From IMG/VR virus record IMGVR_UViG_2713896792_000001, positions 1 to 36,662 of that record: a stretch of DNA of 36,662 nt. The stretch is one strand, 5' to 3'. Made by a program: the position numbers and the translations under genes. How positions within the stretch are numbered: the first letter of the stretch is position 1; each line of letters starts with the position of its first letter. Positions 17,488-35,302 of this stretch are shown piece by piece. The DNA comes from a virus. Its lineage: Duplodnaviria; Heunggongvirae; Uroviricota; Caudoviricetes. The notes under the pieces are model-generated. The model was given only the letters and a program-made list of their open reading frames with translations. It was not told the DNA's origin and searched no databases.

Positions 17488-17760
17488 CTATTTGCCTGCT
17501 GCCAGCAAAGCGTTACGGCGCATATCGATACTTCGAATCCCCGCTTTGTCCATATTGCATTGTCCCAACGCCGAAAGCAGGCTCACATTCAGATCCAGAC
17601 TGGCCCCATAGGTCAGCGGCTCGGGAATGACTGGCTGGGGAGTTTCAGTAGTCAGGCTTGCTGGCAACGGTACCGCCGGAATCGGTACGTAAACTGTTCG
17701 CGTACTTCCGCAACCGGTCAGCAGCGGCAGCAGGCACATGACGTGAAGCACAATCATCAT
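17488..17760 (-). CDS. Rz1-like outer-membrane spanin lipoprotein
   Basis: From Met23 of track ORF: MMIVLHVMCLLPLLTGCGS... (signal peptide + lipobox LLTGC), Pro-rich mature region; overlaps the 3' end of the Rz-like gene in another frame. Confidence 0.45.
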   Translation of the reverse strand: MMIVLHVMCLLPLLTGCGSTRTVYVPIPAVPLPASLTTETPQPVIPEPLTYGASLDLNVSLLSALGQCNMDKAGIRSIDMRRNALLAAGK

Positions 17761-18037
17761 CCGCAACAGCCACTTTGATATCTTCCTGGGTTCTCTGTGA
17801 CTCCAGTGCGATCTGCTGTTTTGCATGCTGGTTAGCCTCTATAACTGTATTGATGATTTGCAGTGATTGAAGAACGTTACGGGTAATGGCAGTTGCTGAT
17901 TCAGCATTTCGTACAGCCTCATCAGCACGCTCCTTTTCGTGCTGATATTTGCTGTAGTAATGCCCAGCAGACCAGATGAAGGAACCAATGACGCTAACAA
18001 CGAAGGCAACAATAACCAGCTTATATCTCAGCTTCAT
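17645..18037 (-). CDS. Rz-like inner-membrane spanin
   Basis: 130-aa ORF with N-terminal TM segment (LVIVAFVVSVIGSFIW) followed by charged, probably helical region; directly downstream of endolysin. Confidence 0.5.
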   Translation of the reverse strand: MKLRYKLVIVAFVVSVIGSFIWSAGHYYSKYQHEKERADEAVRNAESATAITRNVLQSLQIINTVIEANQHAKQQIALESQRTQEDIKVAVADDDCASRHVPAAAADRLRKYANSLRTDSGGTVASKPDY

Positions 18038-18500: not shown

Positions 18501-18827
18501 TTACTCCTTCGAGCTACCAAATTTGTTACCGATTACTCGCATTGCAGCCCCACGAATAGCATCGACACCGATCAGCCCCACGCCACCACCAATGGCAACA
18601 GAAAGCGATTTAGGCCACCCGACATACTCAAGAGCGGATGCAAAGGTCAGCGTCAGAGCGCCACATAGCAAAATCTCGAGCGTTTTTCGCTTCCAGCCAC
18701 CACCACCGCCAAAATAGGCGATGCGCAAACCAGCCATAACGATCGACATAATCACTGCGCCCAGCGGTGTGTCTCCACGCCACCAGCTCTGGAGCAACTC
18801 CAGCCAGGTATTTGGGTTATGAGGCAT
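18501..18827 (-). CDS. holin (lambda S-like class I)
   Basis: 108-aa ORF immediately upstream of endolysin, three hydrophobic segments and charged C-terminus. Confidence 0.6.
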   Translation of the reverse strand: MPHNPNTWLELLQSWWRGDTPLGAVIMSIVMAGLRIAYFGGGGGWKRKTLEILLCGALTLTFASALEYVGWPKSLSVAIGGGVGLIGVDAIRGAAMRVIGNKFGSSKE

Positions 18828-18978
18828 TTATAGTTATCTCTCACCTTGCTGATACAGCAGGTGCAAATTGAGGGAATATCAGGAACCGCAAATCAGAAGC
18901 GGAAACGTCAAAGAAGCCGAGCAAATGGATAACTGCGGGATAGGCCAAGCCTAGCTAACAGCCGGGCCAGAGACGACA

Positions 18979-19000
18979 AAACCCGCTCATCGGCGGGTTT
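18979..19000 (-). terminator. candidate intrinsic terminator for minus-strand (late) transcription
   Basis: Stem AAACCCGC / GCGGGTTT with 6-nt loop; on the minus strand the hairpin is followed by TTTTGTCGTCT. Confidence 0.3.
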
Positions 19001-19118
19001 AAGCTGCGTGGCGAAGTAACCACTCTTAACACGATACAATACTTTTTGCGTACGCGTTAGTTTTTTATTATTTTGCTTTTTGATATGATTAACGTGGTTA
19101 CAAACAAGGAGAACTGCA

Positions 19119-19382
19119 ATGAGTAACTACCTAGAATTTAAGAAAAAAATTGGTGAATATGCAAATGTTACTCGGTGGGGTTTCCCCTGTACCGAGCGTG
19201 AAATCACTTTGATACAAAATGACATTAACTCCGCGCTTCAAAGTGGTAAAGTTATAAGTCGTAGCATGCTCCAAGGCATTATCAGCCGTCATGTTCCCAA
19301 TACCCAATTCTTAATCACTGAAAGTGTGGACAACTCTGATCTTAACACTGCATTAAGAATGCTGGCACCAAAACAAAAATGA
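19119..19382 (+). CDS. hypothetical protein (moron gene 1)
   Basis: 87-aa ORF, ATG at 19119 with AAGGAG 8 nt upstream; AT-rich by inspection; opposite strand to all flanking phage genes. Confidence 0.5.
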   Translation: MSNYLEFKKKIGEYANVTRWGFPCTEREITLIQNDINSALQSGKVISRSMLQGIISRHVPNTQFLITESVDNSDLNTALRMLAPKQK

Positions 19383-20122
19383 ATAATGATGAGTTTCAGA
19401 TCAGCCCCGACGAAGTAACGTCGGAGCTGACTTCTGCAAAGGAAAGATTTTTACGTGGTATTCAGCCATACGTGCGTAATGGCGGTATATCAAACCTTGC
19501 TGACCTACATGAAGTTCAGCAGCATGCTTCAAAATATTTTAATACCGCTGTTAAGTTAGTTCAAAAAGTAGATTTATGTAAACTGGATGACAATAAGACA
19601 TTCGCCATTTCGTTAGCTGGAGACTGTCGAGCAGTTCTGGAAACTTATTTAGAATACTACGACATGATGGTGGCAAACATTAAACACCTAAAAATTGATC
19701 CAGACAATATTGTATTGTATAGCAAAGATGGTCTATCAAACATTCAAAGAATCATTAAAAAGTACTCATCAAAAGATATTTACACCGCTATTATTGCGGA
19801 ATTTGAGTCTCGAAAATTGCCAATCGATGGATTTACTATAGGTACCCCAATGAATTGGAAATTAATTGTCACTGCTATTATTGGATTTTTAAGTTTTTGT
19901 ATTTTTTTATCAATTACACTGTTAATGCCAGACTTGAATGAGTTTCAAAAGAAAATGATTTCTTCTTTATATTTCATGAGTGCGGCCGTTGGAATATCAC
20001 CATTCATTGCAAATAATATAAAGGTCAATGGGAAGATGGTATTTCGTGGTTCGGAATTTAAAGTATCTGCTATTGGTGGTTTAGCAACATTGATTGTTTC
20101 TTTCATCATCCAAGTAATTTAG
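19379..20122 (+). CDS. hypothetical membrane protein (moron gene 2), soluble N-domain plus three C-terminal TM segments
   Basis: 247-aa ORF, start overlaps gene 1 stop (ATGA); hydrophobic segments WKLIVTAIIGFLSFCIFLSITLLM, SLYFMSAAVGISPFIANNI, VSAIGGLATLIVSFIIQVI. Confidence 0.55.
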   Translation: MNNDEFQISPDEVTSELTSAKERFLRGIQPYVRNGGISNLADLHEVQQHASKYFNTAVKLVQKVDLCKLDDNKTFAISLAGDCRAVLETYLEYYDMMVANIKHLKIDPDNIVLYSKDGLSNIQRIIKKYSSKDIYTAIIAEFESRKLPIDGFTIGTPMNWKLIVTAIIGFLSFCIFLSITLLMPDLNEFQKKMISSLYFMSAAVGISPFIANNIKVNGKMVFRGSEFKVSAIGGLATLIVSFIIQVI

Positions 20123-20124
20123 TA

Positions 20125-20144
20125 AAGAGGCCCTAAGGCCTCTT
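20125..20144. terminator. hairpin between convergent genes (possible weak terminator)
   Basis: AAGAGGCC-CTAA-GGCCTCTT perfect 8-bp stem in the gap between moron gene 2 stop and Q stop; no clean U-tract on either strand. Confidence 0.25.
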
Positions 20145-20148
20145 ATAA

Positions 20149-20490
20149 TCATAGCATTGATAGCACACCACTAACAAAACCTAATGCTGTTTGCATATCT
20201 TTTCTAATTGTCCCATCAGAACACTTACGCTTCTTCGCAATGGCGCGTAATGAAATACCAATAACAAAGTGGGCAATTATTAGCTCATATTCTTCTTGTT
20301 TATATTTACGTAACCGTGCGACACAACCGTCTATCACGATCCCTTCATCATCATCACACTGGAGACGTGTTTTTTTACCATGAGGTAAAAGCCCCTTGAA
20401 GCCTGCTGCTATCGGCTGCCAGTCCACACTACTGTTATCTGCTGCAGCCCATGCTCCCCAGCGGTCCAAAACTTCATACATGTCACGCAT
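20149..20490 (-). CDS. late antiterminator Q (QuuD / phage 82 Q-like)
   Basis: Start at Met7 of track ORF (MRDMYEVLDRWGAWAA...), preceded by GGAGAAAG; N-terminus and AAGFKGL motif match my recollection of E. coli QuuD; upstream of the lysis cassette. Confidence 0.7.
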   Translation of the reverse strand: MRDMYEVLDRWGAWAAADNSSVDWQPIAAGFKGLLPHGKKTRLQCDDDEGIVIDGCVARLRKYKQEEYELIIAHFVIGISLRAIAKKRKCSDGTIRKDMQTALGFVSGVLSML

Positions 20491-29569: not shown

Positions 29570-29922
29570 ATGTTTTCGAAATGGAAGGGGTTCTTCGCGG
29601 GAAATGTGTACCGCGAGATCTGAAAGTGAATGAAACAAATGCTGAGTATCTGGTACGTAAATTCGATGCGCTTGAAGCTAAATGTGCGGCTCTGGAAAAC
29701 AAAGTAATACCAGTGTCAGCTGAACTGCCGCCAGCAAATGAAAGTGTTCTGTTATTTGATGCTAATGGAGAAGGCTGGCTGATTGGCTGGCGTTCTCTCT
29801 GGTACACATGGGGGCAAAAAGAAACCGGAGAATGGCAGTGGACATTTAAGGTCGGGGACCTTGAAAACGTCAATATCACTCACTGGGCAGTAATGCCGAA
29901 AGCACCAGAGACTAAGAAATGA
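29560..29922 (+). CDS. yfdS: YfdS-like protein (DUF551-like)
   Basis: 120-aa ORF overlapping yfdR-like stop (alternative ATG at 29566 in an ATGA overlap); Trp-rich C-terminal region. Confidence 0.5.
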   Translation: MRMNVFEMEGVLRGKCVPRDLKVNETNAEYLVRKFDALEAKCAALENKVIPVSAELPPANESVLLFDANGEGWLIGWRSLWYTWGQKETGEWQWTFKVGDLENVNITHWAVMPKAPETKK

Positions 29923-30134
29923 GCGTGATAAAAACTCATACAGGAATTGTTATCACCCGAGACGGTGAAAAGCGGATGAAATTACATTCCACTGAAACGT
30001 CCTGGGTTGCCGGACGTTGTGAATCCTACGACAAAAAGACTGGTTACCGTTGGGGTGCGCCAAACATGCGTCGCCGTCTGCTCCTGGACAGCATCAGGCC
30101 AATAAAACAGGTAGCAACCAGAGAACAAAATTAA
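29919..30134 (+). CDS. small hypothetical protein
   Basis: 71-aa ORF whose ATG overlaps the upstream stop (ATGA). Confidence 0.4.
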   Translation: MSVIKTHTGIVITRDGEKRMKLHSTETSWVAGRCESYDKKTGYRWGAPNMRRRLLLDSIRPIKQVATREQN

Positions 30135-30193
30135 TTATCAGGACTGGAATTTGATATTACTGCCCGTGTGCAGCGGGCTAAGTGGAGAAACAT

Positions 30194-30400
30194 ATGCTGA
30201 ACCTCGATTGCGTTCCTATCTCAACTTATTGCAAAGAAACTGGCGAAACTCCTGAAGCAATAAACAAACGTGTACAGCGCGGTGTTTGGCGTGAAGGTGT
30301 TCAGGTTTTAAAGGTTGAAGGCGTTAAGGAGAGGTGGATTGATCTTAGTGAGGTTGCAAAATGGGCCAGACAAAATTGCTCAAACTACCGCGCGGCGTAA
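30194..30400 (+). CDS. excisionase (Xis-like)
   Basis: 68 aa from Met5 of track ORF (SD GGAGAA); winged-helix-like pattern and position immediately upstream of and overlapping int. Confidence 0.5.
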   Translation: MLNLDCVPISTYCKETGETPEAINKRVQRGVWREGVQVLKVEGVKERWIDLSEVAKWARQNCSNYRAA

Positions 30401-31557
30401 CAATCAGAAAACACCGTCAGGGAGAAACGATCAATATAACTTTCACCTACAAAGGAGTTAAATGTCGTGAGCCACTTTCCAATCTGGAAGTAACACCAAA
30501 GAACATTAAATACGCCGAGCGCACACTCGGCGAAATTCATAATAAGATCGAAAGGGGAACATTCATTTATGCGGAATATTTTCCCCGTTCTGCTCGTTTG
30601 AAAATTTTTGGTAATGCTGCTGCAGGCAAAACGGTAAAAATGTACCTGGACGAATACCTTGAAATCTGCGAAACGAGAAAACTTTCACCATCTACGATTG
30701 GTGGTTATAAAAAATGCCGTAGTGCGTTAGCCTCACTCCACATTTGCCCTGCAAGTGAATTAACACCAGCAATCCTGAAAGCGTGGATTCAAAGCCAGAA
30801 AACGACCTTAAAAACAATTCGCAACCAGTTATCTTTCCTGCGGTCAGCACTTGATGAAGCCGTAACCGATGGGGTACTTCAAATTAACCCCGTATCGTTG
30901 GTAACTGCTTCGCGCTACCAAAGTGATAAGTCAGAAGCAGAAAGCAGCTACGTGGTTGATCCGCTATCACCAACAGAAGTTGATGCATTACTAGCAGCAG
31001 CCGGAAACAAACAATGGGAGAATCTGTTCCGGTTCGCTATACATACAGGCCTGCGTAGTTCTGAATTATGTGCCCTTCGATGGCGTGATATCGACTTTGT
31101 TGGAAAAACTGCCCATGTCCAGAGCGCAAGTGTTGTCGGTGTTATCAAAGGGACAAAGACAAAAGCAGGTACTCGTAAAGTTGAACTGACAGAAGAGGCA
31201 ATGTTGGCGCTGATAAATCAGAAGCCATTTACATTCATGAAGGATGCTACTGTCTTTGAAGACCCAAAGACCAATAAGCCTTGGGCAAGTGCTGATGCAA
31301 TCAGGAAAAAAGCATGGGTGCCAACATTACGGAAAGCAGGTATTCGATACAGAAATCCATATCAAACTAGGCATACATTCGCCACCAGCCATATCAGCCG
31401 AGGAGCAAATCTGTTTTGGCTTGCAGCTCAAATGGGGCATAAAGGGCCGGAAATGCTTTTCAGGCATTATGGTTCGTATCTCGTAGACTATGATGGCAAG
31501 ACAGCTTGTAAGGACCAAGTATCAAAAAATCCGGAGAACATGAAAATTGAGAAGTAA
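30361..31557 (+). CDS. tyrosine integrase (lambda-type, with arm-binding N-domain)
   Basis: 398-aa ORF; C-terminal catalytic region RHTFATSHISRGANLFWLAAQMGHKGPEMLFRHYGSY (R, H-x-x-R, Y); overlaps xis 3' end. Confidence 0.8.
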   Translation: MGQTKLLKLPRGVTIRKHRQGETINITFTYKGVKCREPLSNLEVTPKNIKYAERTLGEIHNKIERGTFIYAEYFPRSARLKIFGNAAAGKTVKMYLDEYLEICETRKLSPSTIGGYKKCRSALASLHICPASELTPAILKAWIQSQKTTLKTIRNQLSFLRSALDEAVTDGVLQINPVSLVTASRYQSDKSEAESSYVVDPLSPTEVDALLAAAGNKQWENLFRFAIHTGLRSSELCALRWRDIDFVGKTAHVQSASVVGVIKGTKTKAGTRKVELTEEAMLALINQKPFTFMKDATVFEDPKTNKPWASADAIRKKAWVPTLRKAGIRYRNPYQTRHTFATSHISRGANLFWLAAQMGHKGPEMLFRHYGSYLVDYDGKTACKDQVSKNPENMKIEK

Positions 31558-31747: not shown

Positions 31748-33013
31748 ATGTTGATTGAGTTTACAGTACAAAACTATAAATCTATTTCAGAGAAACAAAC
31801 ACTGAGTTTAGTTGCATCAAAACTTAACGATTTGCCTAATAATCTGTTCAGTATTGATGAACCTAAATCTCTTGAATTGCTTAAAAGTGCTGTGATTTAT
31901 GGCCCTAATGCTGCCGGAAAATCAAACATTATTAACGCTATTACAACTATGGCTGAACTTATTGTCCGGTCTGCTACAGGTTATAAAAGTGGTGATAAAC
32001 TTGATATCACGCCTTTTAGACTAGACTCAAAGAAGATTAATCAACCATCTGAATTTGAAATTAACTTTATTTCCGAAGGCATCAGATACCAGTATGGTTT
32101 TTCTGCAACAGAAGATTTTATTCACGACGAATGGTTATTTGCATTCCCCAAAGGCAGACCACAAAAATGGTTTTTACGTCTATGGGATGAAGAAAAACAA
32201 ACCCATGAATGGGAGTTGGGGCCATCGTTGACAGGAGAAAAACAAACATGGTTGAAATCAACCAGGCCTAATGCGCTCTTTCTTTCTACAGCGGTACAAT
32301 TAAACAGTGTACAACTAAAACCTGTATACGATTGGTTTTATTACAAAGTTAAATTTACTGAATTAACAGGTTGGGATAGTGATTACAGTGCAAAGCAATG
32401 CTTAAATGATAAGAAAGATGAGATTCTCAATTTTTTAAAAGCTGCCGATGTAGGTATTGATGACATTCATGTAACAAAAGAAAAATTCAATCCCAATGCT
32501 CTTCCTGATGATATGCCTGCAGCCATCAAGGAACTAGTGATTAAGAATATGCAAGGCAAGGAAGAATATGTCATTAAAACACTTCATAATAATGAGGATG
32601 GAGAGCCAATTCCATTCGATTTAAAAGATGAATCGCATGGAACTAGAAAAATCTTTAGTTTCGCGGGTCCCTTATCACATTCACTCGAGACAGGAAACAT
32701 CCTGTTTATTGATGAATTAAATGATAACTTACACCCCAAATTAGTTGAGTTTATTGTAGGTTTATTTCACGATAAAAATATCAATAAGAATGGTGCCCAG
32801 TTAATCTTTACAACTCATGAGACGTCTATTTTAAATCAAGATGTTTTCAGACGAGATCAGATTTGGTTTGTAGAAAAAGACAATTCAAAGCAAACAAATC
32901 TTTTCCCACTTACGGATTTTAGTCCAAGAAAAGGAAGGGAGAATTTAGAAGCTTCTTATCTTGACGGTAGATATGGGGCTTTACCACTCATTGGGAAATG
33001 GGAGAGATATTAA
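31748..33013 (+). CDS. AAA_21/ABC-type ATPase, AbiLi-like
   Basis: 421 aa; Walker A GPNAAGKSN, Walker B ILFIDELNDN, H-loop FTTHE; AT-rich gene; SD AAGGG. Confidence 0.7.
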   Translation: MLIEFTVQNYKSISEKQTLSLVASKLNDLPNNLFSIDEPKSLELLKSAVIYGPNAAGKSNIINAITTMAELIVRSATGYKSGDKLDITPFRLDSKKINQPSEFEINFISEGIRYQYGFSATEDFIHDEWLFAFPKGRPQKWFLRLWDEEKQTHEWELGPSLTGEKQTWLKSTRPNALFLSTAVQLNSVQLKPVYDWFYYKVKFTELTGWDSDYSAKQCLNDKKDEILNFLKAADVGIDDIHVTKEKFNPNALPDDMPAAIKELVIKNMQGKEEYVIKTLHNNEDGEPIPFDLKDESHGTRKIFSFAGPLSHSLETGNILFIDELNDNLHPKLVEFIVGLFHDKNINKNGAQLIFTTHETSILNQDVFRRDQIWFVEKDNSKQTNLFPLTDFSPRKGRENLEASYLDGRYGALPLIGKWERY

Positions 33014-33699
33014 TGGGAAGCGAAGATCTGTTCAAAAAAAGAAAGGCTCGGCGTAATAATGAATTCAAACGAGTTAGTAAAGCACGAGCTCAAATGAAGA
33101 AAATTCTTATCGTCTGTGAGGGAGAGAAGACTGAGCCCGCATATTTTACAGATTTTATAAAACATTGCCGTATAAGCACGGCAAGCATAGTTGAGATTTC
33201 TGGAGAGTGCGGCTCAAGCCCTATGAATGTGGTATCTTGGGCAAAAGAAAAATATAATACGGAAAAAAAAAGGAGCGACCCTTATGATAAGGTTTATTGT
33301 GTCTTTGATAGAGACGCTCACCCTAACTATGATGAAGCTCTTAGCAGGATTAATTCCTTAAATCCAAAAGGGATTTTTGTTGCTATAACTTCCATACCAT
33401 GTTTCGAGTACTGGCTGATACTACATTTTGGATACACCCGAAAATCATTTTCACCTCAGAAAGGCAAAAGTGAAGGCGCACAAATGCTAGCTGAGTTAAA
33501 AAAATACATGCCAGATTATGAGAAAAAGGCATCAGGTGTATTTAATAAATTGCAAGATCGGCTCGATACGGCATTAATCAATGCTAAAAGAGTCGAAGAT
33601 GCCGCCAAAAAAGACGGTTCGATAAATCCTTCAACTAAAGTTGGCGCTTTGATTACAGATCTAATTAACATTCGTGATGACTTTGAAAATGAGAAGTAA
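33013..33699 (+). CDS. RloB-like (TOPRIM-like) protein, AbiLii-like
   Basis: Start at Met6 of track ORF (TAATG overlap, SD GGGAGAG); N-terminal ILIVCEGEKTEPAYF motif characteristic of RloB-family proteins (recollection). Confidence 0.6.
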   Translation: MGSEDLFKKRKARRNNEFKRVSKARAQMKKILIVCEGEKTEPAYFTDFIKHCRISTASIVEISGECGSSPMNVVSWAKEKYNTEKKRSDPYDKVYCVFDRDAHPNYDEALSRINSLNPKGIFVAITSIPCFEYWLILHFGYTRKSFSPQKGKSEGAQMLAELKKYMPDYEKKASGVFNKLQDRLDTALINAKRVEDAAKKDGSINPSTKVGALITDLINIRDDFENEK

Positions 33700-33824
33700 A
33701 AATAACATGTCATGATGTAGCGACGGCAGCATGTTTAAGTTCAAATGGCAAAGTGTACGCGAAGTATACGCGGATCAAAAACAATAGAAAAAACGTATAT
33801 TTTACAAAAGATTATATAAATTTT

Positions 33825-33855
33825 GACGCGGGTTCAACTCCCGCCAGCTCCACCA
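33825..33855 (+). other. ssrA: attachment-site core: 3'-terminal 31 nt of the tmRNA gene ssrA (fragment only)
   Basis: GACGCGGGTTCAACTCCCGCCAGCTCCACCA is identical to the 3' end of E. coli ssrA as I recall it; the upstream sequence is not ssrA. Confidence 0.6.
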
Positions 33856-33901
33856 AAATTCTCCATCGGTGATTACCAGAGTCATCCGATGAAGTCCTAA
33901 G

Positions 33902-33935
33902 AGCCCGCACGGCGCAAGCCCTGCGGGCTTTTTTG
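33902..33935 (+). terminator. rho-independent terminator (native ssrA terminator)
   Basis: AGCCCGCA ... TGCGGGCT stem followed by TTTTTT. Confidence 0.55.
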
Positions 33936-33986
33936 TGCCCTCAATTTGTCCCGCGAAGTCCGAAGAAAACTAATTAAATCCGATCC

Positions 33987-34060: not shown

Positions 34061-35302
34061 ATGGCAAGACAAACCAAACCTCTATCCGTTAAAGAAATAG
34101 AATCAGCCAAACCCAAGGAGGCGGACTACGTTCTCTATGATGGCGATGGCCTTGAGCTACTCATTAAATCCAGCGGGAGTAAAATCTGGCAGTTTCGCTA
34201 CATTCGCCCTGTCACCAAGAAACGAGCAAAGAAGAGCATAGGCTCCTACCCGTCAGTTACCCTTGCCGATGCCAGAAACTACCGTGCAGAGTCCCGCTCA
34301 CTACTGGCTAAACAGATCGATCCGCAGGAACATCAGCAAGAACAATTGCGCAGTTCGCTGGAAGCCAAAACCAACACTTTCCAACTCGTAGCTGAACGTT
34401 GGTGGAATGTGAAGAAAGCCAGTGTGACAGAGGACTATGCGGAAGATATCTGGCGCTCTCTTGAAAGAGACGTCTTTCCTGCGATTGGCGACGTTAGCGT
34501 TACAGATATTAAAGCTCATACACTGGTTCAGGCCGTACAACCGGTTCAGGCCAGAGGAGCACTGGAAACTGTTCGTCGCCTGTGCCAACGTATTAATGAG
34601 GTCATGATCTATGCCCAGAACACAGGGCTGATTGATGCTGTTCCCAGCGTTAATATCGGTAAAGCCTTCGAGAAGCCTCAGAAAAAGAACATGCCCAGCA
34701 TTCGACCGGATCAGCTACCTCAGTTAATGCAGACGATGCGAACAGCCAGCATTAGCCTTTCCACACGCTGCCTGTTCATGTGGCAACTTCTTACTATTAC
34801 CCGCCCTGCCGAAGCGGCTGAAGCTCTCTGGGAAGAGGTAGACATAGAAGCGCGAGAGTGGAAGATTCCTGCAGCACGCATGAAAATGAACCGCGACCAT
34901 ACTGTTCCATTGTCAGATGAAGCAATTGCGATACTAGAGATGATGAAGCCGTTAAGTGGAAATCGAGAATTTATCTTTCCCAGCCGCATCAAGCCAAACC
35001 AGCCGATGAACAGTCAGACCGTAAACGCATCGCTAAAACGCGCAGGTTTTGGTGGGGTGCTCGTTTCACACGGCCTGCGATCTATCGCCAGTACAGCCCT
35101 TAATGAGCAGGGATTTCCACCTGATGTTATTGAGGCTGCACTTGCTCATGTGGATAAGAATGAGGTTCGTCGTGCGTATAACCGTAGTGATTATCTTGAG
35201 CAGCGACGGCCTATGATGCAGTGGTGGGCTGATTTTGTGATGGCTGCAGATCACGGTAGTATGATTGAAGGAGGGATAAAGGCAATGCGGTTAGTTGGAT
35301 GA
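34061..35302 (+). CDS. intA: P4-family tyrosine integrase, CP4-57 IntA-like
   Basis: 413-aa ORF directly downstream of the ssrA 3' end, as intA is in E. coli K-12; N-terminus MARQTKPL..YDGDGLELLIKSSGSK.WQFRY and C-terminus VSHGLRSIASTALNEQGFPPDVIEAALAH match IntA as recalled. Confidence 0.8.
   Translation: MARQTKPLSVKEIESAKPKEADYVLYDGDGLELLIKSSGSKIWQFRYIRPVTKKRAKKSIGSYPSVTLADARNYRAESRSLLAKQIDPQEHQQEQLRSSLEAKTNTFQLVAERWWNVKKASVTEDYAEDIWRSLERDVFPAIGDVSVTDIKAHTLVQAVQPVQARGALETVRRLCQRINEVMIYAQNTGLIDAVPSVNIGKAFEKPQKKNMPSIRPDQLPQLMQTMRTASISLSTRCLFMWQLLTITRPAEAAEALWEEVDIEAREWKIPAARMKMNRDHTVPLSDEAIAILEMMKPLSGNREFIFPSRIKPNQPMNSQTVNASLKRAGFGGVLVSHGLRSIASTALNEQGFPPDVIEAALAHVDKNEVRRAYNRSDYLEQRRPMMQWWADFVMAADHGSMIEGGIKAMRLVG

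Follow-up and report, generated by a model that had tools for sequence, protein, structure and literature searches.

A two-gene cassette between Q and the late genes of an Escherichia coli prophage, a candidate membrane-acting defence or exclusion module that recurs across Proteobacteria

The viral record IMGVR_UViG_2713896792_000001 (Caudoviricetes) comprises 36,662 nucleotides, which were analysed in full and are referred to here as the window; the chromosome of E. coli CFSAN061769 contains the identical sequence. Between the genes for the late antiterminator Q and the holin lies a pair of genes, here called A and B, on the strand opposite to all of their neighbours, which code for the holin, a GH24 lysozyme, Q, and a DUF968 protein (Table 1). 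The open reading frame (ORF) list and the RefSeq coding sequences agree on both genes, and RefSeq names the products as hypothetical proteins (WP_052906754.1 and WP_052906755.1). The original prediction, made from the letters of the window, described a cassette of two genes (87 and 247 aa) opposite to Q and the holin gene, with ATGA coupling and a strong Shine-Dalgarno (SD) sequence, more AT-rich than the prophage backbone, and with three C-terminal transmembrane (TM) helices following a domain of about 160 aa in the larger protein; each of these features is borne out by the data below.

The A stop codon overlaps the start codon of B in the sequence ATGA (19379-19382), and B has no SD of its own, implying that its translation is coupled to that of A, for which an AAGGAG is present 7 nt upstream of the ATG. 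The GC content is 0.30-0.41 across the cassette and 0.51-0.58 in the flanks (300-nt windows), with overall values of 0.358 for the cassette and 0.504 for the whole window. Comparison with a variant of 94% identity gives ratios of nonsynonymous to synonymous substitution (dN/dS) of 0.45 for A, 0.24 for B, and 0.18 for Q, and both A and B are under purifying selection.

A putative promoter with an extended -10 motif is positioned upstream of A, and the sequence TGnTAnnnT occurs at an equal distance from the ATG in all four of the A+B loci compared (the window, the E. coli variant L002, Klebsiella L015, and Citrobacter L019). The 26 bp separating the stop codons of B and Q are occupied by a hairpin (-13.4 kcal/mol, z = -3.3), and none of 200 shuffled sequences folds as well. 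Most of the other cargo types compared have a hairpin of their own at the corresponding position, and that of the window probably terminates the cassette transcript and insulates it against transcription converging from Q. We infer that the cassette is self-sufficient and would be free for expression in the lysogen. The extended -10 sequence TGATATGATTA (+ strand, 19081-19091) is almost exactly repeated in inverted orientation at the Q stop codon as TGCTATGATTA (- strand, 20146-20156), and this second copy is itself promoter-like, with a TTGTTA 18 nt upstream (TTGTTA-18-TATGAT, 20177-20148, - strand).

Table 1. Features of the cassette, of its borders, and of the corresponding slot in related phages and prophages.
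Feature	Location	Strand	Remarks
Gene A	19119-19382	+	87 aa, soluble four-helix protein; ORF list and RefSeq coding sequence
Gene B	19379-20122	+	247 aa, three C-terminal TM helices; ORF list and RefSeq coding sequence
Putative cassette promoter, extended -10 TGaTATGAT (TGATATGAT)	19081-19089	+	Read from sequence
SD of gene A, AAGGAG	19106-19111	+	7 nt 5' of the ATG; read from sequence
Hairpin AAGAGGCC-CUAA-GGCCUCUU	20125-20144		Probable terminator; -13.4 kcal/mol, z = -3.3, 0/200 shuffles fold as well
Q antiterminator, Q21/Q933W family	20149-20490	-	Right border of slot; PF06530 1.6e-45; RefSeq start 20490
Conserved block, 85-90 bp	18975-19062	-	Left border of slot; near-invariant in 10/10 loci compared
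Candidate Q-binding element (QBE) ACGCGTACGC	19057-19048	-	Read from block
-10 hexamer TATTGT (TAnnnT)	19041-19036	-	TATTAT in two loci
Pause-element-like TAAGAGT	19028-19022	-	Read from block
Small hairpin, then terminator hairpin with T-run	19000-18979 (terminator)	-	Read from block
Lambda-family holin	18501-18827	-	First late gene downstream of conserved block; PF05106 3.2e-25, phrog_126 4.6e-37
Slot cargo: DUF6650 protein		opposite	PDC-M68A-like by PADLOC
Slot cargo: TIR protein		opposite	PADLOC TIR-TM 1.7e-57
Slot cargo: KwaA and KwaB	L031, E. coli prophage	opposite	PADLOC 1.9e-83, 2.3e-150
Slot cargo: 308- and 182-aa pair	L005, 2642-4103	opposite	No PADLOC match
Slot cargo: 340- and 194-aa pair	Shigella phage SfII	opposite	
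Slot cargo: 343- and 179-aa pair	Stx2a phage 1447, L035, 4130-5693	opposite	No PADLOC match
Slot cargo: NmpC/Lc porin	Phage 434	opposite	

Protein B contains hydrophobic segments at residues 162-180, 193-211, and 229-247 (Kyte-Doolittle), and AlphaFold2 predicts a confident helical N-terminal domain (residues 10-145, pLDDT mostly 80-90) followed by helices at 160-182, 188-210, and 232-246. The loop between TM2 and TM3 carries charges of +4/-1 and that between TM1 and TM2 is neutral, consistent with an N-in topology that would leave nearly all of B in the cytoplasm. An exhaustive profile search yielded 80 representative homologues of B, mostly 245-270 aa long, which match it from end to end at 17-25% identity; the core is free of Pfam domains in all 80, and three hydrophobic segments are present in 48 of 53 family members. 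B shares with them a helical N-domain of ~155 aa with conserved residues (K21, F54, N55, C83, L87, Q123, R124, F142, L147, P148, G151, and F152), followed by three hydrophobic helices; to our eye, the conserved residues form no catalytic motif. Two homologues carry additional domains. In P0091 (562 aa) the N-domain and one TM segment are joined to an alpha/beta-hydrolase of the PGAP1/DUF676 type, and P0069 (469 aa) has a C-terminal DUF3298; these variants suggest a modular, regulatory role for the N-domain, with the output provided by whatever follows it.

Protein A has no hydrophobic segments and is predicted to fold into four short helices. Its C-terminal motif SVDNSDLNTALR (SVDNSDLNTAL in the window) is invariant in eight enterobacterial clusters, and other small proteins have the variants GLDNSDL, GIDNTDL, and GADNSDL. 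A belongs to a family of small proteins with a [S/G]xDN[S/T]DLxT(L/A)L motif encoded directly upstream of B and on the same strand, which comprises at least 196 clusters, none of them named, from Comamonas, Pseudomonas, Aeromonas, Vibrio, Shewanella, Marinomonas, Burkholderia, and Desulfobulbus. The commonest form of the module has three genes, coding for two paralogous small proteins and B, and only the small gene adjoining B is kept in the phage forms and in some chromosomal ones. Judged by eye from the alignment, A is of the type of small protein that adjoins B ("PNTxF...SVDNSDL"). Alignment of the A and B family profiles with hhalign gave no relationship between the two. One Comamonas protein, P0104, has 158 aa, roughly double what is usual for the small protein, and may be a tandem fusion.

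The only matches of A and B are to two PHROGs of unknown function, phrog_31842 for A (1.8e-7, residues 7-80) and phrog_5814 for B (5.2e-15, residues 12-221). Neither protein has a usable match among Pfam and NCBIfam profiles, and PADLOC-DB v2.0.0, which covers the Vassallo PD- systems, the Rousset P2/P4 systems, and the PDC candidates with models, returned only a fragment of DndH at the level of noise (E = 0.0071, 11.6 bits). A 53-member profile found no match among PDB sequences, and Foldseek against BFVD gave no match at E <= 0.001 and no specific fold. The original prediction recognised neither protein, and homology to a characterised structural, lysis, or metabolic protein, named there as one of the findings that would refute it, was looked for and none was found. 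The four WP accessions that were checked are absent from the full texts searched, and the accessions and family signature strings are likewise absent from those DefensePredictor tables that were examined. Nor was the pair found among the systems named or tested in the main texts of Rousset et al. 2022 (PMC9122126) and Vassallo et al. 2022 (PMC9519451). The proteins appear to be new, and their general kind, a two-component membrane-acting defence carried by a prophage, is already known.

The cassette is present in 21 of 5426 complete E. coli genomes, six at >=99% identity and 15 at ~94%. In L002, which belongs to the 94% group, the late region is different and includes a small ORF, a DNA methyltransferase gene, essD/rrrD, and a lambda-type terminase, and the cassette still adjoins the same type of Q despite this. 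Klebsiella and Citrobacter prophages with replication and lysis modules different from those of the window contain an 86-87-aa gene that overlaps a 247-249-aa gene and is convergent with a PF06530 Q gene. Identities to the window change in step for A and B: 91 and 92% in L002, 53 and 52% in Citrobacter, and 46 and 55% in Klebsiella. No copy of the cassette was found among the GTDB species representatives searched for related loci.

Beyond the enterobacteria, we examined the remote modules with readable contigs (L021-L030 and L038). In all nine distinct modules, one or two small ORFs (80-90 aa) with a DNSDL-type motif lie directly upstream of B on the same strand. The sole exception is a plasmid copy of B in which an IS30 element takes the place of the small genes. 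Additional genes flank the remote modules (210, 219, 235, and 286 aa, among others), and because these are not homologous to each other we do not consider them part of the module core. In most taxa the modules are AT-rich relative to their hosts (e.g. 0.378 vs 0.600 GC in Aeromonas). A and B thus constitute a real, co-inherited unit that recurs across Proteobacteria. The pair is kept together at this Q site in other lambdoid prophages and far beyond them, so that the lack of conservation named in the original prediction as a refuting result is not seen. Its reading as horizontally acquired cargo is strongly backed by what the slot holds in sister phages and by the neighbourhoods of the remote copies, both described below.

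The neighbourhoods of these remote copies repeatedly include defence genes. In Pseudomonas syringae, a three-gene module is located between gop-beta-cII upstream (beta 9.6e-22, cII 7.9e-37) and, immediately downstream, a complete Gabija system (GajA 4e-202, GajB 1e-138), with a PDC-S32 gene nearby; a GajB fragment (1.5e-92) lies upstream of the module at L027. A PDC-M68A-like HNH protein is encoded 4 kb from the module in Pseudomonas sp. FP1740 (L024). On a Pseudomonas aeruginosa plasmid, the genes downstream of the B homologue are annotated as Hachiman HamA and a DEAD/DEAH helicase. In the P2-like phage OU784750, an 85-aa protein with the sequence SVDNSDLN and a 233-aa B homologue (1.8e-59 to phrog_31842 and 1.2e-111 to phrog_5814) are encoded on the opposite strand, with the tail-fibre assembly gene to one side and the tail sheath gene FI to the other, which is the position of the fun locus in P2. 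Vassallo et al. 2022 (PMC9519451) describe fun as a second defence-enriched hotspot of P2.

On this plasmid (CP137918; L039, 3709-4857), an IS30-family element ends ~100-130 bp upstream of the B homologue. A second IS30 copy interrupts the neighbouring Hachiman locus, and the region is a defence islet in decay, next to a class 1 integron.

In the window, the cassette occupies a variable slot that is bordered by Q and a conserved block and extends from the Q stop codon to coordinate ~19062. In sister prophages that share the Q family and the holin, unrelated genes are found at this position, likewise on the opposite strand (Table 1). There are eight types of slot cargo, and four are recognised by PADLOC (Kiwa, TIR-TM, PDC-M53A/B, and the PDC-M68A-like effector); the DUF6650 domain has been reported as newly validated in defence (PMC13092281). 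A fixed site with many unrelated alternatives, several of them known defence systems, constitutes a defence hotspot, and we did not find the slot between Q and the late promoter described as one in the literature searched. In the Stx2a phage 1447, an unrelated pair fills the slot and the conserved block is upstream of a methylase gene, tRNAs, and stx2AB. Since stx2 is downstream of the block, the slot in the window corresponds to the lc/nmpC type of site and is not strictly the stx site; the suggestion in the original prediction that this is where lambdoid phages carry Shiga toxin (Stx) and other conversion or exclusion genes needs correction as to stx.

The 308+182-aa and 343+179-aa pairs are further unannotated candidates in this slot, with the latter just upstream of the late block preceding stx2AB (O157).

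The block at the left border of the slot is kept in all ten loci compared, whatever the cargo or the genes downstream; 363 phage records and 453 of the 5426 E. coli genomes contain it. Its elements (Table 1) resemble in order and size those of the annotated phage 21 unit, which consists of a -35, QBE, -10, start, the pause element TAAGCTG at +2, and a terminator; the block has TAAGAGT in the place of TAAGCTG. In Klebsiella and Citrobacter the sequence of the terminator hairpin differs and its stem and - strand T-run are kept, and ACGCGGTCCGC replaces ACGCGTACGC in two loci whose Q proteins are only 48-60% identical, a covariation with Q subtype that rests on this single split. The window Q is a PF06530 protein (27% identical to Q21, E = 9e-9), for whose family a canonical Q cassette has been described by Yin et al. 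(10.1101/651190). By likeness to the phage 21 unit and this canonical cassette, we think it rather probable that the block contains pR', the QBE, a sigma-dependent pause element (SDPE), and tR', and that cargo has been inserted between Q and its promoter. The block lacks a good -35 and lies 1.1 kb from Q, whereas promoters of the Q21 family are adjacent to it. If the block is pR', the cargo would be transcribed divergently from it and outside of the late transcript.

The promoter-like site near the 3' end of Q (20177-20148, - strand) was also considered as pR' and appears less likely, since its border changes with the cargo and the left block is invariant. StxS does not provide a direct parallel, as it involves a 144-aa type of Q and a 258-nt pR'-tR' unit, and is useful as an analogy only. 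A block acting as pR'-tR' should lead a lysogen to make constantly an RNA of ~50 nt from the - strand of 18975-19030, arising in the manner of StxS and ending at the 18979-19000 hairpin. No Rfam family matches between 18700 and 20300, including for this candidate short RNA.

The explanation we favour, with moderate confidence, is that A and B form a lysogen-expressed, two-component, membrane-acting defence or exclusion module that is autonomous and mobile. The module, with its own extended -10, SD, coupling, and terminator, would be carried by the prophage as cargo expressed in the lysogen, pointing away from and outside of the late operon, and would protect the lysogen against other phages. 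B would be held in the inner membrane by three TM helices, the N-terminal helical domain facing the cytoplasm and the C-terminus lying outside, and A would be its small cytosolic partner, with the invariant DNSDL helix as the means of binding and controlling B. Strict co-occurrence of the small proteins with B, their invariant acidic helix-capping motif, and the hydrolase fusion together suggest that the small protein or proteins bind the N-domain and set the state of the membrane output. When a phage infects, the pair would act in one of two ways: it would destroy the integrity or potential of the membrane, which would amount to abortive infection, or it would stop the phage at a step in the envelope. 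The first is the likely output if RexAB, Kiwa, and the TM effectors of CBASS, Pycsar, and retrons are taken as analogies, with envelope exclusion as the main alternative. The defence cargo in the slot, the Gabija, Hachiman, and gop-beta-cII neighbours, and the P2 Z/fun position provide strong backing from context for the pair as a defence candidate.

Several points weigh against this explanation. The case is one of guilt by association, and PADLOC v2 contains no matching model. The slot also holds a gene that is not for defence, that of the NmpC/Lc porin, so that occupancy of the slot does not prove a defence role, and Pfam shows no recognised defence neighbours at the Marinomonas (L028) and Aeromonas (L030) loci. 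No pore-forming or enzymatic signature was found in B, and its model is of low confidence from about residue 211, which takes in the last ~35 residues and TM3. The original prediction of a defence or exclusion system not previously described stands as a supported hypothesis once its site is corrected, and the pair is a strong candidate whose activity is still a matter of inference.

Superinfection exclusion, in which B together with A would keep the phage genome out or halt an early step at the envelope while the cell survives, as for T4 Imm, P22 SieA, and HK97 gp15, is an unlikely alternative. It would agree with the predicted membrane location of B and with the prophage moron slot, in which phage 434 carries a surface-altering porin. 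However, nearly all of the mass of B is predicted to be cytoplasmic, and a periplasmic part consisting of a ~10-residue loop and the C-terminus would give an injecting tail little to make contact with; the module is also present in chromosomal islands and beside abortive infection (Abi)-type systems.

A toxin-antitoxin (TA) or addiction pair, with A as the labile antitoxin, B as a membrane toxin, and any effect on phages secondary, is a shade less likely again. A small gene upstream that overlaps a larger one by ATGA is the classical type II layout, its carriers include prophages, a plasmid-like contig, and satellites, and a VapB antitoxin gene adjoins one of the modules. But A has no Pfam match and no recognisable DNA-binding antitoxin fold, the pair does not show the type II combination of such an antitoxin (ribbon-helix-helix, helix-turn-helix, or AbrB) with a downstream toxin of a known family, and the two paralogous small proteins of many of the systems would be unusual for TA; TA and defence roles are in any case not mutually exclusive.

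We consider it improbable that the pair is a lysogenic-conversion membrane factor unrelated to phages and comparable to lc/nmpC or bor, acting for example in stress tolerance, transport, or colonisation. The NmpC/Lc porin occupies the same slot in phage 434, but neither protein has transporter, adhesin, or enzyme signatures, the remote copies are repeatedly found by Gabija or Hachiman and in P2/P4 hotspots, and this reading has to accommodate a small cytosolic partner that is strictly co-inherited. A regulator of lysis timing or late genes (antiholin-like or Q-modulating) is very improbable and largely refuted by distribution, for while the pair is always directly beside a PF06530 Q in Enterobacteriaceae, it has no Pfam or PHROG lysis match (holin, antiholin, or spanin), is on the opposite strand and by our reading outside of the late transcript, is replaced by unrelated cargo in sister phages with the same Q and holin, and is present without Q or holin in the P2 tail region, chromosomal islands, and a plasmid.

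A broader proposal, whose chances we regard as evenly poised, is that A and B are the phage two-gene form of a widespread and unnamed proteobacterial defence family, which would combine one or two DNSDL-motif small proteins with a three-TM effector that has a new cytosolic sensor or regulatory domain. This family would have colonised three independent hotspots, the lambdoid slot, P2 Z/fun, and the surroundings of P4-like gop-beta-cII, and the gap between Q and the late promoter would be a general defence hotspot. If so, the gap in Q21-type lambdoid phages, including Stx2a phages, would still hold other unrecognised systems. About 8% of complete E. coli genomes contain the slot, as do Stx-converting phages, and it is open to systematic mining, and at least two further gene pairs from it are without any annotation. 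Confirmation would add to membrane-acting phage defence a new pair of protein families with no detectable relatives in sequence or fold, and would provide an evolutionary series (two-gene phage form, three-gene chromosomal form, and hydrolase fusion) for separating sensor from effector.

Other parts of the prophage contain features of separate interest. At its end, on the - strand, a Panacea-domain protein gene (33382-33954) is adjacent to a gene for a hypothetical protein (32966-33352), and a truncated tRNA-dihydrouridine synthase gene (34208-34312) is beside them; the region 32966-33954 may encode a PanA-type TA or defence pair at the attachment-site end of an apparently dusA-integrated prophage. 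Next to the Rz1-like lysC, an intact 130-aa Rz-like ORF (17645-18037, - strand) coincides with a DUF2570 gene that RefSeq lists as a pseudogene with a missing C-terminus (17768-18037), a call that is probably an annotation artefact of an embedded spanin pair. The early region opposite the repressor (29671-31075) contains a frameshifted yfdR (5'-deoxynucleotidase) followed by a gene for a phosphoadenosine-phosphosulfate-reductase-domain protein, which together could be a DNA-modification or nucleotide-metabolism accessory.

Among known systems, RexAB of lambda and the RexAB-like pairs, such as gp30/31 of mycobacteriophage Sbash, are prophage-encoded exclusion pairs expressed in the lysogen. Like A and B, RexAB has an upstream cytosolic partner and a downstream polytopic inner-membrane protein, with membrane failure or exclusion as the presumed outcome. 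The proportions of RexA and RexB are reversed in the cassette, where the membrane protein is the large component and has 155 aa of cytosolic domain, next to a tiny soluble partner of 87 aa; many relatives of the cassette also have two small partners, and no Pfam, PADLOC, or PHROG model of a named system matched. Kiwa, which in L031 occupies the exact slot and strand, similarly has two genes and a membrane component, but its membrane protein (KwaA, with ~4 TM segments) is small and encoded upstream and its soluble DUF4868 protein (KwaB) is large, and A and B have no Kwa match at E <= 10, with L031 serving as the positive control. JukAB was also considered, and the combination of JukB homology with a JukA sensor in the operon was not found.

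Similar to the cassette in overall size is DS-13 (TMO1) of DefensePredictor (PMC13092281), a validated E. coli system of two hypothetical proteins with TM segments. Its proteins are of 183 and 233 aa with N-terminal hydrophobic stretches, and by eye the sequences given in its Table S8 are unrelated to A and B; DS-13 is a different pair. The lc/nmpC porin moron of PA-2, 434, and DLP12 shares with A and B its place by the block and holin, its opposite strand, and expression in the lysogen, and differs in coding for an outer-membrane beta-barrel porin rather than an inner-membrane three-TM protein with a partner. Lastly, the P2 Z/fun and P4 psu-int loci resemble the slot in being fixed sites, flanked by conserved phage genes, at which the cargo varies, and members of the A+B family themselves are present in the P2 slot between the tail-fibre genes and FI, and beside gop-beta-cII in P. 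syringae.

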